A stretch of 64,000 nucleotides of DNA from Bacteroidota bacterium (lineage in GTDB: Bacteria; Bacteroidota; Bacteroidia; UKL13-3), in contig JAIXWW010000012.1 in NCBI GenBank assembly GCA_027491085.1, positions 170,628 to 234,627 of the forward strand, written 5' to 3'. Made by a program: the position numbers and the translations under genes. The notes below the pieces were generated by a model, which saw only the letters and a program-made list of their open reading frames with translations, was not told the DNA's origin and searched no databases. This document shows positions 551-5,683 of the stretch, in pieces (the first letter of the stretch is position 1; the number at the start of each line of letters is the position of its first letter).

Positions 551-804
551 AAAACCTCTTTTATTTATCTCAGCAAAGCAAAGGGACGCTTATGCTCTAT
601 ATTCTTCCTAAATTTAATAACGCTTGTGATAAACGTTAAAATGACATCCTTTAATACTTTTGCTTTATGATAGCATTACCAAACTGCTTTCAATAAAAAT
701 TGGTTTAAACATTCTAAAATAAATTTCTCCTAAAAAGTAAAAACTACTCCTATTTTTAAAACAAATGAATATAATTGTAGGAGAAAAAACGAACTTAAGT
801 TGCT

Positions 805-833
805 CCAATCCACCCAAATTTGGGTTGGCTTGG
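805..833. promoter_or_regulatory. imperfect 29-nt palindrome with perfect 14-nt core acccaaatttgggt (812-825), 80-100 nt upstream of the 906 ORF
   Basis: ccaatccacccaaatttgggttggcttgg. The core is a perfect inverted repeat and the outer arms match 6/7 with one indel. No T-run follows, so an operator is more likely than a terminator. Confidence 0.35.
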
Positions 834-905
834 AGAAAGTTTATAGGGGAAAACTTCTTATATAAATGAGTTATCGGGCAGCCTAAAAGACGACACAGAA
901 AATAA

Positions 906-1448
906 ATGACAGACTTCAAAACATACTATAATTCAAATTTTCGAGACGACTTAAATCGGTTCTTCTCGACAATTCCTGATGAAAGTAAGTTTCACGAAGA
1001 CAATCAAAACAAACAGACATTTTCAATTCAATACGAAAGATTAACACCAGCATTTGACCATCTTAACTTTTTAGACAAAGAAAGAAAAGAATATTTTGCA
1101 GTAGCACTCTTCCTTACGGTTTTAACAGATATGGTTTGCTTTTCGCATTATAAACCGAATTACAACAAATTCAGAAGTCTAACAAGATATCCAAAGTTCA
1201 TTGGCAATTGCCCTGGTGGATGTAACTACCATTATCACCCAAGCGACATATTTTTTGCTATGAACAAAGGACGTTCTTCAAGCGAACAGCATTTAGTTTT
1301 CTATGATAAGTTTTTAGAAGCAATAGAAACTATGAAGGCAGAAACAATTAATTTTTTTAAAGAACATTTAATGGAAGTAAATGGAGAGTTATTTTGGGAT
1401 AAATGCCAAAGCGAATTTCCATACAGACCACAAAAAGAAAATATATGA
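906..1448 (+). CDS. hypothetical protein, 180 aa, soluble, C-x3-C-x2-H-x-H motif; translationally coupled to mrr
   Basis: ORF track. ATG preceded by an in-frame stop. Its TGA (1446-1448) overlaps the Mrr ATG (1445-1447). No family recognised. GNCPGGCNYHYHP knuckle at nt 1209-1238. Confidence 0.6.
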   Translation: MTDFKTYYNSNFRDDLNRFFSTIPDESKFHEDNQNKQTFSIQYERLTPAFDHLNFLDKERKEYFAVALFLTVLTDMVCFSHYKPNYNKFRSLTRYPKFIGNCPGGCNYHYHPSDIFFAMNKGRSSSEQHLVFYDKFLEAIETMKAETINFFKEHLMEVNGELFWDKCQSEFPYRPQKENI

Positions 1449-2362
1449 TACCAGACTACCAATCAATAATGTTACCGTTACTTGAATTTATTGCAGACGG
1501 TAAAGAATACAAAATGCGAAACGTTACAGACGAACTGGCGATAAAATTTGGTGTTACGGAAGAAGAACAAAAAGAATTATTACCTAGCGGAGTAGCACCT
1601 GTGTTTTATAATCGAACTGCTTGGGCAAAAACATATTTAAAAAAGGCAGGCTTAATCGACAGCCCAAAACAAGGAATTGTTATCATTTCTAAGAGAGGCA
1701 TAGAGGTACTTAAGAAAAAGCCAAGTTCAATTAATGTGAAGTTTTTAAAACAATTTTCTGAATTTGTTGCATTTCAAACCGTAAAACGCGAAGACGAAAG
1801 TGAAACAGAAACAGAAACTAGCGAGGAGCAGTCTATACAGACACCTGAAGAGCTATTAGAAATGGCATATCAGAAGATAAGAAAATCATTAGCATCTGAA
1901 CTCATAAGCAAAGTGGTTGAACTATCACCAGCATTTTTTGAGAGACTTGTAGTTGAACTGTTAGTAAAAATGGGTTATGGTGGTTCAATCAAAGACGCGG
2001 GTAAAGCAATGGGGAAAAGTGGTGACGAAGGAATTGATGGAACAATAAAAGAAGACAAACTTGGGCTTGACATTATCTACATTCAAGCCAAGCGATGGAA
2101 GCCAGGAAATGTTGTTGGACGACCAGAAATTCAAAAATTTGTTGGTGCACTTGCCGGACAAGGCGCTAAAAAAGGAATTTTCATTACTACCTCAAATTTT
2201 ACTAAGGAAGCTTTGGACTATACACCGAGAAATGAAACAAAAATTGTTCTCATTGACGGTGAACAGTTGGCTCAACTGATGATTGACTATAATCTTGGTT
2301 GCACTTCTCAGCAGACCTATGAAGTTAAAAAATTAGACAGCGACTACTTTGGAGAAGAATAA
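1445..2362 (+). CDS. mrr: Mrr-family type IV (modification-dependent) restriction endonuclease
   Basis: N-terminal Mrr_N-like winged helix (MIPDYQSIMLPLLEFIADGKEYKMRNVTDELA...YNRTAWAKTYLKKAGLI). C-terminal PD-(D/E)xK Mrr_cat core (GDEGIDGTIKEDKLGLDIIYIQAKRWK). Start moved to the ATG at 1445, where homology to the Mrr N-terminus begins. Confidence 0.85.
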   Translation: MIPDYQSIMLPLLEFIADGKEYKMRNVTDELAIKFGVTEEEQKELLPSGVAPVFYNRTAWAKTYLKKAGLIDSPKQGIVIISKRGIEVLKKKPSSINVKFLKQFSEFVAFQTVKREDESETETETSEEQSIQTPEELLEMAYQKIRKSLASELISKVVELSPAFFERLVVELLVKMGYGGSIKDAGKAMGKSGDEGIDGTIKEDKLGLDIIYIQAKRWKPGNVVGRPEIQKFVGALAGQGAKKGIFITTSNFTKEALDYTPRNETKIVLIDGEQLAQLMIDYNLGCTSQQTYEVKKLDSDYFGEE

Positions 2363-2542
2363 AGCATACGGACGACAAGAAGGCCGACCCGATAACACGG
2401 GTTTGGCAAAAGTAGCGGTTCAGTGCTCCGCAGACATATTTGTGGTTAATCAAAGTTTGGTTCTCCGCTTCAATATTTGTGGTGAAAATCGCCACCTTCG
2501 CCAAGCCCGAAAACGTTAGTAAAGAAACAATTTTTTTAAATC

Positions 2543-2812
2543 TCATTTTTTCCAAATTTTAGGATTCCTGCTTGAATGAAAAATATGGTGAATCAATATC
2601 GTATTGTCCTCAATTGAATAAAATACCTCAAATGGAAATCTATTTACCAAAAGCATTCTAAAGTCTTTGTAAATTTTAGCAAAAAGTAATGGGTTTTTCT
2701 TTATTAGTTCAAATGCGTTCTCAACTTCACACAAAAACTCAAAACCAAGCTTATCTTTTTGATCATTATACCATCCAGTCGTTGCAGGCGTCCTCAGGCT
2801 GCAACAAAAACC
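2543..2812 (-). pseudogene. ParE/RelE-family type II toxin, N-terminally truncated, no start codon and no antitoxin gene
   Basis: The tail ..WYNDQKDKLGFEFLCEVENAFELIKKNPLLFAKIYKDFRMLLVNRFPFEVFYSIEDNTILIHHIFHSSRNPKIW is ParE-like. The frame is open back to 2812 but has no ATG before the internal Met at 2734, and the first ~20-30 residues of a normal ParE are missing. Confidence 0.6.
2779..2803 (-). terminator. GC-rich hairpin gttgcag-N11-ctgcaac just downstream of the uvrA stop
   Basis: 7-bp perfect stem, 25-50 nt after the uvrA stop. No clear U-tract, so terminator function is tentative. Confidence 0.3.
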
Positions 2813-2827
2813 CTATTAAATCTCTGT

Positions 2828-5683
2828 TTACTTCAACTTATCCTTCAAATACTTGGCTGTATAACTTTCGGTATTGTTAATTAAATCTTCGGGCAAACCA
2901 GCAAACACTAAGTTTCCGCCTTCATCGCCAGCTTGTGGACCAAGGTCAACAATATAATCAGCGCATTTAGCCACATCCATATTATGTTCAATTACAATAA
3001 TGGTATGTCCTTGGTCAATCAATGCATTAAACGATGTCAATAATTTATTGATATCGTTAAAATGTAAACCTGTAGTTGGTTCATCAAAAATAAATAACAC
3101 ATGTTCTGAACTTGCACGTTTACCCAAGAAAGAAGCCAATTTTACACGTTGTGCCTCACCCCCACTTAAAGTATTGCTCGATTGACCTAATTTGATATAA
3201 CCCAAACCAACATCCCTCAATGGTTTAATTTTATTAGCAATAGTAGTTTCGTCATGGAAAAACTCCAAAGCTTCATCTACGCTCATGCTCAACAAATCAC
3301 TGATGCTTTTTCCATTGTGTTTGGCATCTAAAACTTCTTCTTTAAACCTTGCACCTTTACATTCATCGCATGGCAAATGTATATCGGCCATAAATTGCAT
3401 TTCAATGGTTACTTCACCTTCGCCTTGGCAAGTTTCGCAGCGGCCACCTTCTACGTTAAAACTAAAGTGTTGCGGTTTAAAACCTCTTGCTTTCGAAATA
3501 GCTAATTGCGAGTACAAATCTCTAATGGCATCGTAAGCTTTTATATAAGTGATGGGGTTACTCCTACTCGATTTGCCAATTGGATTTTGATCAACCATTT
3601 CAATTTGTGTAATGGTTTTTATATCTCCACCAATGCTTTCGTGAGCACCAGTTTTTTCGCCTGTGTAATTACCCAAATGCTTTTGAATAGCAGGATATAA
3701 AATCTTTTTAATTAAAGTAGTTTTTCCACTTCCAGAAACGCCTGTAACCACTGTAAATGCACGCAAAGGGAACTTTACATCAAAACCTTTTAAATTATGC
3801 TGCCTTGCTCCTTTTATTTCAATATAATCTTTCCACTTTCTGCGTTTGGTAGGAACCTCAATTTTTTTAACTCCAGATAAAAACATTCCGGTTAAACTAT
3901 TGGTATCGTTTTTTATAAAATCAATATTTCCTTGCGATACTTTTTCGCCACCATGAATTCCTGCTAAAGGCCCAATGTCAATGATTTCATCGGCTGTTTG
4001 CATTATTTCTTCATCGTGTTCAACCACCACAACTGTATTGCCAATATCACGCAGTTTTTGTAAAACTCTAATCAAATTTTCAGTATCGCGCGGGTGTAAA
4101 CCAATGCTTGGTTCGTCTAAAATATACAACGAGCCAACCAAACTTGAACCTAAAGAAGTAGCCAAATTGATACGTTGCGTTTCGCCACCACTTAAAGTGC
4201 TTGAAAGTCTATTTAACGACAAATAACCTAAACCTACATTTTGCAAAAAGTTCAACCTATTGGTTATTTCAACCAAAATTCTGCTTGCTATTTTTTGATG
4301 TGTTTCCGACAGTTTTAAGTTTTGAAAATAGGCCACACAATCATCAATACTCATGAGTAAAAGTACCGATAAACAAGCGTATTCACTATCGCCATTAAAA
4401 GTATAAACCGCATCCGATTTATTTAAATTAACCAATTTTACATAATTGGCATCTTGGCGCAAACGTGTTCCTCTGCAATCGTAACAAGTAGTTTTACCAC
4501 GATAACGTGCTAACATGACACGGTATTGAATTTTATAGGTTTGTTTTTCTAACTCTTTAAAAAAGCCATTTAAACCGGGCCAACCCGCTCCACCTTGCCA
4601 TAAAAAATCTTTTTGTGATTGGGTTAATTCAAAATATGGTTTGTGTAATGGAAAATCGTTTTTACGGGTAACATGAATAAACATTTGTTTCCATTCTTGC
4701 ATTTTTTCGCCTTTCCAAGGCACAATGGCATCTTCGAAAATGGATAAACCTTTGTCAGGAACTACCAAATCTTCGTCAATCCCAATTACATTACCAAGAC
4801 CTTCGCAAGTTTTACATGCTCCAAAAGGATTATTAAAACTAAACAAATTAACACTTGGTTCTTCAAATTTTTGTCCATCTAGCTCAAAACGATTGTTGAA
4901 CAATTCATATTGCGTTTTTCCTTCGTCATTGATGGTGTGCAGCACACATTCCCCTTCGCCTTCAAAAAATGCAGTTTGTATAGAATCAGAAATTCTGTTT
5001 AAAAAATCTTCATCATTTTGTTGCACTGCAAAGCGATCAATTAACAAATATAGAGGTTCGGCATTTTTAGCTTTAGCTGTTTTCTTTACCAATTCATCAT
5101 TGCTTAAAAATTCTTCAATATCAAGCATTTCATTGTTTAAAAACAAACGATTAAAACCTGTTTGTAAATACACTTCTAATTGCTTACGCAATTCGTTTTC
5201 AGTAATAATAGTTACCAATAAATAGGCTTTGGTATTTTCGGGTAATGCCAAAATATGTTGCACCACATCGTCAATGGTATGGCGTTTTACCATATTGCCA
5301 CTAATGGGCGAAAAGGTAACACCAATGCGAGCAAATAGTAATTTTAAATAATCGTATATTTCGGTTGAAGTAGCAACAGTTGAGCGTGCATTTCGGGTAT
5401 TAACCTTTTGTTCAATAGCTATTGATGGCGAAATACCATGAATATAATCTACATCGGGCTTATTCATTTTACCCAAAAACTGCCTAGCATAAGCCGATAA
5501 ACTTTCTACATACCTGCGCTGCCCTTCGGCATAAAGTGTATCAAAAACCAAACTTGATTTACCTGAACCTGAAACCCCTGTAACTACTGTTAATTTATTA
5601 CGCTTAATGTTTACATCAATATTTTTTAAATTGTGTGCACGAGCGCCTTTGATGATAATTTCCTTGTTATTTGATTGACTCAT
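2828..5683 (-). CDS. uvrA: excinuclease ABC subunit UvrA
   Basis: 951 aa. Two ABC ATPase modules (GVSGSGKSSL; GVSGSGKTTL; LSGGE signature twice) and zinc-finger Cys clusters (CKTCEG, CETCQGEG). Confidence 0.97.
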   Translation of the reverse strand: MSQSNNKEIIIKGARAHNLKNIDVNIKRNKLTVVTGVSGSGKSSLVFDTLYAEGQRRYVESLSAYARQFLGKMNKPDVDYIHGISPSIAIEQKVNTRNARSTVATSTEIYDYLKLLFARIGVTFSPISGNMVKRHTIDDVVQHILALPENTKAYLLVTIITENELRKQLEVYLQTGFNRLFLNNEMLDIEEFLSNDELVKKTAKAKNAEPLYLLIDRFAVQQNDEDFLNRISDSIQTAFFEGEGECVLHTINDEGKTQYELFNNRFELDGQKFEEPSVNLFSFNNPFGACKTCEGLGNVIGIDEDLVVPDKGLSIFEDAIVPWKGEKMQEWKQMFIHVTRKNDFPLHKPYFELTQSQKDFLWQGGAGWPGLNGFFKELEKQTYKIQYRVMLARYRGKTTCYDCRGTRLRQDANYVKLVNLNKSDAVYTFNGDSEYACLSVLLLMSIDDCVAYFQNLKLSETHQKIASRILVEITNRLNFLQNVGLGYLSLNRLSSTLSGGETQRINLATSLGSSLVGSLYILDEPSIGLHPRDTENLIRVLQKLRDIGNTVVVVEHDEEIMQTADEIIDIGPLAGIHGGEKVSQGNIDFIKNDTNSLTGMFLSGVKKIEVPTKRRKWKDYIEIKGARQHNLKGFDVKFPLRAFTVVTGVSGSGKTTLIKKILYPAIQKHLGNYTGEKTGAHESIGGDIKTITQIEMVDQNPIGKSSRSNPITYIKAYDAIRDLYSQLAISKARGFKPQHFSFNVEGGRCETCQGEGEVTIEMQFMADIHLPCDECKGARFKEEVLDAKHNGKSISDLLSMSVDEALEFFHDETTIANKIKPLRDVGLGYIKLGQSSNTLSGGEAQRVKLASFLGKRASSEHVLFIFDEPTTGLHFNDINKLLTSFNALIDQGHTIIVIEHNMDVAKCADYIVDLGPQAGDEGGNLVFAGLPEDLINNTESYTAKYLKDKLK
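2834..2866 (-). repeat. right copy of 33-nt imperfect direct repeat (functional uvrA 3' end)
   Basis: See left copy at 503-535. Same orientation, encodes SYTAKYLKDKL. Confidence 0.75.

Follow-up and report, generated by a model that had tools for sequence, protein, structure and literature searches.

An orphan gene and an Mrr nuclease gene on a probable integron-like cassette of a Bacteroidota genome

Integrons are classic engines of gene capture. In the IntegronFinder 2.0 survey, the Bacteroidetes contributed In0 elements and a single complete integron only, that of Salinibacter ruber. The chromosomal integrons of Vibrio carry phage-defence cassettes, including cassettes for Mrr_cat proteins, and the two-gene cassettes of known integrons are often toxin–antitoxin (TA) pairs, according to the Darracq et al. 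preprint and, for the latter statement, its introduction (10.1101/2024.07.02.601686). Cassette-borne defence genes are already known from Vibrio integrons. The present study concerns a stretch of 64,000 nucleotides (nt) from a Bacteroidota bacterium (assembly GCA_027491085.1, contig JAIXWW010000012.1, positions 170,628 to 234,627 of the forward strand), hereafter the window, and within it two overlapping genes that an earlier note, made from the sequence alone, had put forward as a candidate two-gene defence module: an orphan gene, here called X (906–1448, plus strand), and the gene of an Mrr-family nuclease (1445–2362, plus strand). Comparison with related genomes leads us to consider it likely that positions 871–2515 constitute a mobile cassette of an integron-like system common in Bacteroidota, with X and Mrr as cargo that is paired facultatively.

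The limits of this cassette emerged from a census of 47 species-level genomes that encode an X relative (loci L001 and following). Homology between the DNA of the window and that of ten other X loci starts at the same base (869–871), and the stretch from about 2380 to 2520 recurs after unrelated genes, where it is 92–94% identical against 77–80% for coding DNA. This element of 135 nt (2387–2521, plus strand) starts 25 nt past the Mrr stop codon and resembles an integron attC site, with an R'' box CGATAAC (2390–2396), a covarying stem of about 20 base pairs (bp), a variable centre of about 66 nt, an invariant AAAAC spacer and an R' box G2515|TTAGTA, in which the bar marks the predicted crossover. 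RNAalifold predicts for nine copies of this attC-like site a common long hairpin of 20 pairs, 14 of which show compensatory changes, between invariant flanks (5′ TAACA and 3′ AAAACGTTA); TTTG motifs are conserved in the centre. A covariance model derived from these copies gave the window element 146 bits. Across the window and the 47 X loci it detected 66 copies, of which almost every one has the orientation of the genes; they form arrays in which consecutive copies are separated by one or two genes (six copies each in L010 and L023). A similar leader, GTTAnnGGCAGCyTAAAAGACGAC, follows the element in unrelated cassettes, including those that carry Mrr alone. In the box consensus the AAC and GTT triplets are near-invariant, while other positions deviate from RYYYAAC/GTTRRRY (e.g., CGATAAC and GTTAGCA) and the AAAAC spacer is one-sided.

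Successive elements are linked by a simple rule. The R'' 7-mer ending in AAC is the exact reverse complement of the GTTnnnn of the previous element in 17 of 28 adjacent pairs, as opposed to 1 of 46 when it is compared with the element's own GTTnnnn and 6% for random pairs. The window cassette obeys this rule at all seven positions, CGATAAC (2390–2396) pairing with G2515 plus TTATCG (871–876), and its bounds are therefore placed at 871 and 2515 (plus strand), which gives a complete cassette of 1,645 bp comprising a leader, X, Mrr and most of the attC-like site. Box complementarity of this kind is, as read from the sequences, the signature of the integron G|TT crossover, by which a circular cassette has its own site completed by its first six bases, and it implies that these cassettes would pass through a circular intermediate, like the cassettes of integrons. 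The two ORFs (open reading frames) of the cassette are followed by an imperfect inverted-repeat site of 135 nt, with a G|TT crossover that pairs with the cassette's own R''.

Once the cassette is circular, its leader TTATCGGGCAGCCTAAAAGACGACACAGAAAATAA (871–905, plus strand) would supply the 3′ half of an extended R-box stem, pairing with 2381–2396 in the folded junction. When the reconstituted circular junction was folded as a single strand, the bottom strand reached −29.8 kcal/mol (z = −3.3; none of 200 shuffles was as good) and the top strand −26.1 kcal/mol (z = −1.8), a predicted asymmetry that hints at recombination of a folded single strand. L001 has this cassette too (95% nt identity), but what precedes G|TT there is another sequence, and these differing flanks support its presumed mobility. 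Alignment of window positions 862–2427 with L001 2156–3715 also revealed a mosaic in which X is near-identical, Mrr is more diverged and homology ends in the variable centre of the site, a pattern that points to recombination within the cassette. The variable centre itself contains an internal 32-nt direct repeat (2418–2449 and 2455–2486, 75% identical, each copy with ATATTTGTGG); we know of no counterpart in canonical attC sites.

The 135-nt element lies just past stop codons and combines a long hairpin with conserved central TTTG motifs, features that would also suit a terminator, a repeat of the repetitive extragenic palindrome (REP) or miniature inverted-repeat transposable element (MITE) type, or a structured RNA rather than a recombination site. 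Any of these would leave the seven-out-of-seven complementarity between R'' and the previous R' unexplained. Moreover, cassette homology breaks exactly at G|TT (870|871 in the window), the arrays start at a fixed site by a tyrosine recombinase gene, there is no T-run after the hairpin, and Rfam and tRNA scans of the element and of its surrounding islet returned no match. We regard these explanations as most improbable.

In L004 and L005, a tyrosine recombinase gene heads the array on the same strand, and relatives of this gene occur in at least 235 genomes, from which 80 loci were analysed with flanks of 8 kb on both sides. Out of 73 element matches in these loci, 70 lie downstream of the recombinase gene on the same strand. 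In 23 of 27 loci there is one copy, and no more, of the predicted crossover (the first element's AAC box in reverse complement). It lies 89–108 nt past the recombinase gene, where the surrounding sequence reads TATA[AT]A[CT]AAG|TT and an imperfect palindrome stands before it. An array, a tyrosine recombinase and a putative attI site are thus found together in the related loci; of the latter two, the window keeps the attI-like site only. It is located at 745–870 (plus strand): the imperfect palindrome CTCCAATCCACCCAAATTTGGGTTGGCTTGGAG comes first, then TATAAATGAG, and G870, the crossover base, closes the site. The window reads …ATCCACCCAAATTTGGGTTGG…TATAAATGAG|TT, an architecture like that of the recombinase-linked sites. 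Under the mechanism that we propose, cassettes would be cut at G|TT, pass through a circle and be inserted at the attI-like site by the recombinase.

The closest PDB relatives of this recombinase are the archaeal XerA structures 4a8e and 5hxy, with which it aligns contiguously. The protein has an N-terminal extension of about 70–100 amino acids (aa), its gene is oriented like the cassettes, and its public labels vary between 'site-specific tyrosine recombinase/integron integrase', 'tyrosine-type recombinase/integrase' and 'XerD'. The family comprises at least 7,969 clusters in metagenomes, and arrays were found in dozens of genomes of Flavobacteriales, Chitinophagales, Sphingobacteriales, Cytophagales and Ignavibacteria. 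The 73 cassettes that could be delimited have a median length of 1,015 bp, with one ORF in 39 and two in 23, and their cargo includes Mrr_cat proteins, GNAT acetyltransferases, a C5-methylase with Eco47II, NotI, a YhcG nuclease and thioredoxin. Resistance-type genes were also observed (cassettes in L005–L209), namely the streptomycin adenylyltransferase ANT(6) twice, a LinB-like lincosamide nucleotidyltransferase and a beta-lactamase. Many contigs stop 0.1–1.7 kb past the recombinase gene (L134, L135, L137, L144, L148, L157 and others), as would be expected if repeated sites break short-read assemblies, and the arrays are probably under-represented in metagenome-assembled genomes.

TAnnTTTG, of the sigma-AB type, is the −7 promoter consensus of the Bacteroidetes. 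A TAnnTTTG box stands at an aligned position about 20–40 nt past the recombinase stop codon in 14 of 23 attI-like regions (L133–L212; e.g., L140 9040–9075) and is a candidate cassette promoter. At this position the window reads TATAATTG, with one mismatch, and the TAnnTTTG motif is not enriched in the window. Transcription of the cassette is probably driven by a promoter in or beside the attI-like region.

Gene X encodes a protein of 180 aa that is predicted to be all-alpha, with a Cys/His loop. Its motif C102-x3-C106-x2-H109-x-H111 (1209–1238, plus strand) falls within GNCPGGCNYHYHP, which begins at nt 1203, and within the family signature YPKxxGxCPGGCxxHxHP. Homologues of X form 170 clusters at 90% identity, mostly from Bacteroidota and every one labelled 'hypothetical', and an exhaustive profile search delineated a family of 255 representatives at 50% identity. 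The ratio of nonsynonymous to synonymous substitution rates (dN/dS) between pairs is 0.08–0.19, which indicates purifying selection, and X is evidently a real gene. F29-H30-E31-D32, H52, C102, C106, H109 and C167 are invariant in close homologues, and Y7, F12, F64, D75, F89, P112 and the P96 and K97 of the YPK motif are kept family-wide; the Cys pair is retained in most members, whereas the His residues vary across the family. The protein is mildly acidic (isoelectric point, pI, 6.2). X matched nothing in Pfam, NCBIfam or PADLOC and reached noise level only in PHROGs, and its sequence profile found no match in the PDB. AlphaFold2 models it as an eight-helix bundle with a disordered Cys/His loop (predicted local distance difference test, pLDDT, 83; predicted template modelling score, pTM, 0.84), the loop being the least confident region (pLDDT <50 at 103–108), and Foldseek searches with this model found no match in the PDB (best E 2) or BFVD (best E 0.7).

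Three catalytic readings of X were considered and rejected. In a HEPN ribonuclease, the motif (in X, R45-x6-H52) should stand where the final helix of a four-helix bundle begins, but in X it lies in the N-terminal third, in a loop of the model; R45 and H52 are fully conserved in close homologues only and lost family-wide, no Pfam HEPN model matched at E<1, and the Foldseek match to the HEPN-MNT structure 5yep had an E of 2.3. As an HNH or His-Me finger nuclease (C-x3-C-x2-H-x-H…N120), it would lack H109 and H111 in the many family members that replace them; the model has no confident beta-beta-alpha element, and there was no Pfam or PDB match. An HD domain was rejected as well: the His, Asp and Cys residues on which all three readings were built are not kept throughout the 255 clusters of the family, and the topology is unsuitable. 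Rare longer proteins (P0179, P0132 and P0218) contain the X domain together with another one, as DUF3293-X, as X-APH (an APH-type kinase) or, with a weak match, as X-DUF4268; these fusions are uninformative as hints of function and may be gene-calling read-throughs.

The downstream gene (1445–2362) encodes a 305-aa Mrr-family type IV restriction endonuclease, with an Mrr_N winged helix at residues 5–90 (PF14338, 3.9e-31), an Mrr_cat PD-(D/E)xK domain at residues 159–279 (PF04471, 8.9e-36) and a full-length match to the PADLOC model mREase_IV (1.6e-90). The D…(E/Q)xK motif is intact in the translation (GDEGIDG…YIQAKRW), and the protein begins with MIPDYQ, as do all its homologues. The stop codon of X (TGA, 1446–1448) overlaps the ATG of Mrr at 1445 as ATGA. 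Close relatives of Mrr are present in at least 479 genomes, and its family matches indicate an ordinary stand-alone type IV, presumably modification-dependent, nuclease. On these points the earlier note had read the sequence well: the 180-aa ORF, the Cys/His knuckle, the ATGA overlap at 1445–1448 and the Mrr_N plus PD-(D/E)xK architecture were all borne out, and X does lie outside known families. The homologue, selection and structure searches that it suggested returned conserved homologues, purifying selection and no structural relative. Its description of X as soluble stands only just, since no 19-residue window exceeds a Kyte-Doolittle mean of 1.6 and the central helix 63–82 reaches 1.59.

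What did not survive comparison is the idea that X is obligately coupled to Mrr, as a sensor, a specificity subunit or a self-immunity factor in a two-protein defence module. Mrr lies directly downstream of X in 7 of the 47 X loci only. From the other side, the closest 80 Mrr genes (69–95% identity) of those in the at least 479 genomes were inspected: an intact X is found upstream in 3, a frameshifted X in 1 (L078, on the same contig as L022) and X fragments in 2, and the remaining 74 Mrr genes have no X, including genes 89–93% identical to that of the window that stand alone. Each gene is also found as a single-gene cassette, X in L011, L013, L033, L038 and L039, and Mrr in L060, L097, L101 and L107, where the element ends 35–55 nt before the ATG; the element follows the Mrr stop codon in about ten loci. 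L036 has the layout of a solo-X cassette, its X being a pseudogene. Frameshifted, stop-interrupted or fragmentary copies of X were recorded in L022 (111–643), L036 (5001–5579), L080 (2869–3001) and L087 (2821–2970), and Mrr is intact beside the defective X in L022, L080 and L087. Between the window and L001, the synonymous divergence (dS) is 0.04 for X and 0.28 for Mrr, so that the two genes appear to have separate histories. The ATGA overlap is nevertheless constant in every locus with an intact pair, both genes are under purifying selection, and the pair is kept with an X as low as 50% identical (L073), all of which an obligate module would explain. Such a module is, however, very unlikely, and a role of X as an obligate subunit of Mrr is essentially excluded by these comparisons: from neither side is there the consistent co-occurrence of an obligate module or of a type II TA system. 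Because X seems to be independently mobile and Mrr an ordinary stand-alone nuclease, their pairing is best described as facultative. Homologues of X do sit repeatedly near nuclease and defence genes, as the earlier note anticipated when it proposed a survey of gene neighbourhoods and a defence context, without always being 5′ of an Mrr_cat gene.

How X and Mrr came to share one cassette is suggested by the junction between them. The last 22 nt or so of X in X-Mrr cassettes read ACAGACCACAAAAAGAAAATATATGA, and the leader of solo-Mrr cassettes ends in ACAGACATAAAAGAAAAATATGA; some X homologues end immediately after EFPY. An X cassette and an Mrr cassette could have fused by losing the site in between, after which X would read through the former Mrr leader to the TGA within ATGA, its last seven codons or so being the 3′ end of that leader. 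We infer such a fusion from a resemblance that is suggestive and falls short of proof because the sequence compared is short and A-rich. A fusion of neighbours is equally what one would expect if X were unrelated cargo that came to share the Mrr cassette incidentally, the overlap being functionally meaningless. This explanation has the solo cassettes of both genes and the mixed cargo of the arrays on its side; in L011 and L020, moreover, X directly follows a gene of housekeeping type (for a formyltransferase and an M28 peptidase, respectively), and X is present in only 1 of the 80 recombinase-proximal arrays. Against it stand about 20 loci, i.e., about half, in which X and the next gene are tightly coupled (−15 to +16 nt), often with a 4- or 8-nt overlap, and the kind of partners found there. 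An incidental coupling of X and Mrr is a serious possibility that ranks next after the accessory role favoured below, if one that we hold to be improbable on balance.

The partners of X are diverse. Homologues lie beside BREX genes, with BrxL downstream in L025 and PglZ in L007, inside BREX operons, and in L029 and L032 the downstream gene encodes the TPR/cold-shock protein of TOTE systems, with a helicase-TBP_TOTE gene upstream; no recombination site is nearby in these BREX and TOTE operons, a further point against incidental coupling. Elsewhere the downstream gene encodes an MmeI-like type IIG enzyme (L018), a protein with DUF3276 and a helix-turn-helix (HTH) (L019, L021, L023 and L031), a 191-aa protein with a D…ELK PD-(D/E)xK motif (L004 and L005), a protein with a Vsr-like IEFDG…H motif (L040) or a protein with one N-terminal membrane helix (L008 and L012). 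Identifiable tightly coupled partners are therefore proteins that target or bind nucleic acids, a membrane protein, or BREX or TOTE components, never resistance or metabolic cargo, and for this reason an accessory role is favoured: X would be a portable Cys-pair metal or redox sensor or regulator working with nucleic-acid-targeting immune effectors, which we propose tentatively, at somewhat less than even confidence. Since it occurs as a solo cassette, X evidently works on its own. As for the defence context, X accompanies Mrr, two other PD-(D/E)xK families, BREX, TOTE and type IIG restriction-modification (R-M), and its link to Mrr is not the obligate one that the earlier note envisaged.

An upstream position with a 4-nt overlap is typical of antitoxin–toxin pairs and of C-protein–restriction endonuclease pairs. 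X occupies just this position, and it might restrain cassette-borne nucleases as they enter a new host, to be released or degraded on infection. The PD-(D/E)xK partners that come without a methyltransferase (L004/L005 and L040) would suit a controller of this type, as would the frequency of TA pairs among the two-gene cassettes of known integrons. X and Mrr each persist alone, though, and solo copies fit poorly with such control. No DNA-binding or antitoxin domain was detected in X with Pfam, NCBIfam or PADLOC, its pI is not suggestive of DNA binding, and one small protein is unlikely to inhibit different nuclease families plus a membrane protein. We consider a TA-like or controller role unlikely.

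The surroundings of the cassette in the window suggest a platform in decay. A 35-nt direct repeat (family D1) is found at 503–537, at the left edge of an islet of about 2.3 kb, as a duplicate of the uvrA 3′ end, and again at 2834–2868, inside the 3′ end of the true uvrA gene (2828–5683, minus strand); the copies are 86% identical and spaced by 2331 nt. An element therefore seems to have inserted itself at the 3′ end of uvrA, duplicating that end. For an empty-site comparison, the closest uvrA in the genome collection is 79% identical and without synteny. To the right of the cassette, a 63-aa ORF with a TTG start (2543–2734, minus strand) matches positions 32–89 of the 89 of the Pfam model ParE_toxin (E 1.8e-4; 22.5 bits against a cut-off of 23). 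It is a truncated ParE-like relic with no antitoxin gene beside it, perhaps what is left of a second TA cassette in inverted orientation. The TA relic mentioned in the earlier note is thus recognizable as the C-terminal two-thirds of a ParE-like toxin at a score just below the curated cut-off, and the small islet is real, although the note had overlooked both the cassette with its own recombination site and the uvrA duplication at the bounds. The islet is, as we read it, a decayed platform with one cassette left plus the ParE relic: a cassette would have been inserted at the attI-like site, the recombinase gene would since have been lost, and the duplicated uvrA 3′ end would flank what remains.

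Several observations weigh against the interpretation of 871–2515 as a mobile integron-like cassette with facultatively paired cargo. A tblastn search of the window found no recombinase gene or remnant, and the search of 440–900 gave noise only; with its recombinase gone, the window copy may be immobile. The recombinase of the related loci has no IntI-specific domain. That additional domain lies around patch III, according to the passage of PMC9668308 that cites Messier and Roy (2001), and in the alignment with VchIntIA (2a3v) the match splits, with 61 IntI residues facing 19 profile positions. The recombinase scores 200.8 bits with TIGR02249, for which the cut-off is 265, and it also falls below the NCBIfam XerA/integron-integrase cut-off. 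For want of the IntI domain and with scores below the curated integrase cut-offs, the system is, by these sequence measures, not a canonical integron. The argument for fusion rests on about 22 A-rich nucleotides. The fold of X matches nothing, and the His residues of its motif are not conserved across the family. Finally, in about half of the X loci X and the gene that follows it are tightly coupled, and several of these partners are unrelated nucleases, so that X and Mrr may be true functional partners.

A broader proposal can be put forward with more reserve than the cassette itself: that the arrays belong to an unrecognised and very common integron-like capture system of Bacteroidota and Ignavibacteria built on a XerA-like recombinase, with circularisable cassettes, a G|TT crossover, attI, attC-like hairpins and, probably, a promoter next to attI, and that X is a portable Cys-pair sensor or regulator of new fold serving unrelated immune effectors. 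Taken as a whole, this proposal is speculative and, in our estimate, rather less probable than not. No description of the Bacteroidota arrays, or of the recombinase as their integrase, was found in the literature, which is not proof of absence, and we are evenly divided on whether the cassette system is undescribed so far. The Bacteroidetes are reported to be almost free of integrons, yet the arrays obey the integron cassette rule with a recombinase that has no such domain as is considered necessary for recombination in integrons; if the proposal is correct, a recombinase devoid of the IntI domain would explain why surveys call the phylum nearly integron-free. Should the system be confirmed and prove undescribed, it would widen the definition of the integron, reveal how genes for defence and resistance spread through a major phylum of the environment and the gut, and allow the need for the IntI insertion in folded-site recombination to be tested directly. 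Environmental Bacteroidota thus carry resistance-type genes in probably mobile cassettes, and X, small and either solo or coupled to several unrelated effectors, is a tractable orphan for defence biology.

Among described systems, the Mrr protein itself is unremarkable. It shares with E. coli Mrr and other Mrr_N plus Mrr_cat enzymes the full-length architecture of an N-terminal winged helix and a PD-(D/E)xK core, and the difference here is that its gene is borne on a cassette and overlaps an upstream orphan. X is more difficult to place. Like the small partners in 'conserved small gene plus variable effector' pairs, C-protein systems and type II TA systems, it is a small upstream gene overlapping a variable downstream nuclease or membrane effector; unlike C proteins and antitoxins, it has no HTH or antitoxin fold and is often alone, and its partners survive without it. 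Its homologues, distant ones as well as close ones, sit inside BREX and TOTE (TPR, OB, TBP, Effector) operons, in the orders PglX-X-PglZ, PglZ-X-BrxL and helicase-TBP_TOTE–X–TPR/CSD, whereas X matches no core-component family of these systems in Pfam or PADLOC and the window carries neither system. The Vibrio cassettes of Darracq et al. likewise present compact defence genes as cassettes, with canonical IntI and attC, and X is not among the systems named in the portion of that preprint considered here.

The arrays themselves resemble the class 1 and the Vibrio chromosomal integrons. Both they and the Bacteroidota arrays consist of short, mostly one-gene cassettes in the same orientation, and the site of the window, at 135 nt, lies within the range of the integron attC sites (imperfect inverted repeats of 57–141 nt). 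The ..AAC and GTT.. boxes, the G|TT crossover and the first six bases that complete the cassette's own site are common to both, as are an attI-like site by a tyrosine recombinase, a bottom strand that folds better than the top strand, and a cargo mix of resistance enzymes, GNATs, R-M and defence genes. On the other hand, the recombinase here is XerA-like, without the IntI domain, N-terminally extended and encoded in the same direction as the cassettes. The site differs from attC by its one-sided invariant AAAAC spacer and by an R stem that is about 7 bp longer, and the cassettes differ by a conserved leader of about 25 nt after the crossover and by boxes that fit RYYYAAC/GTTRRRY loosely.

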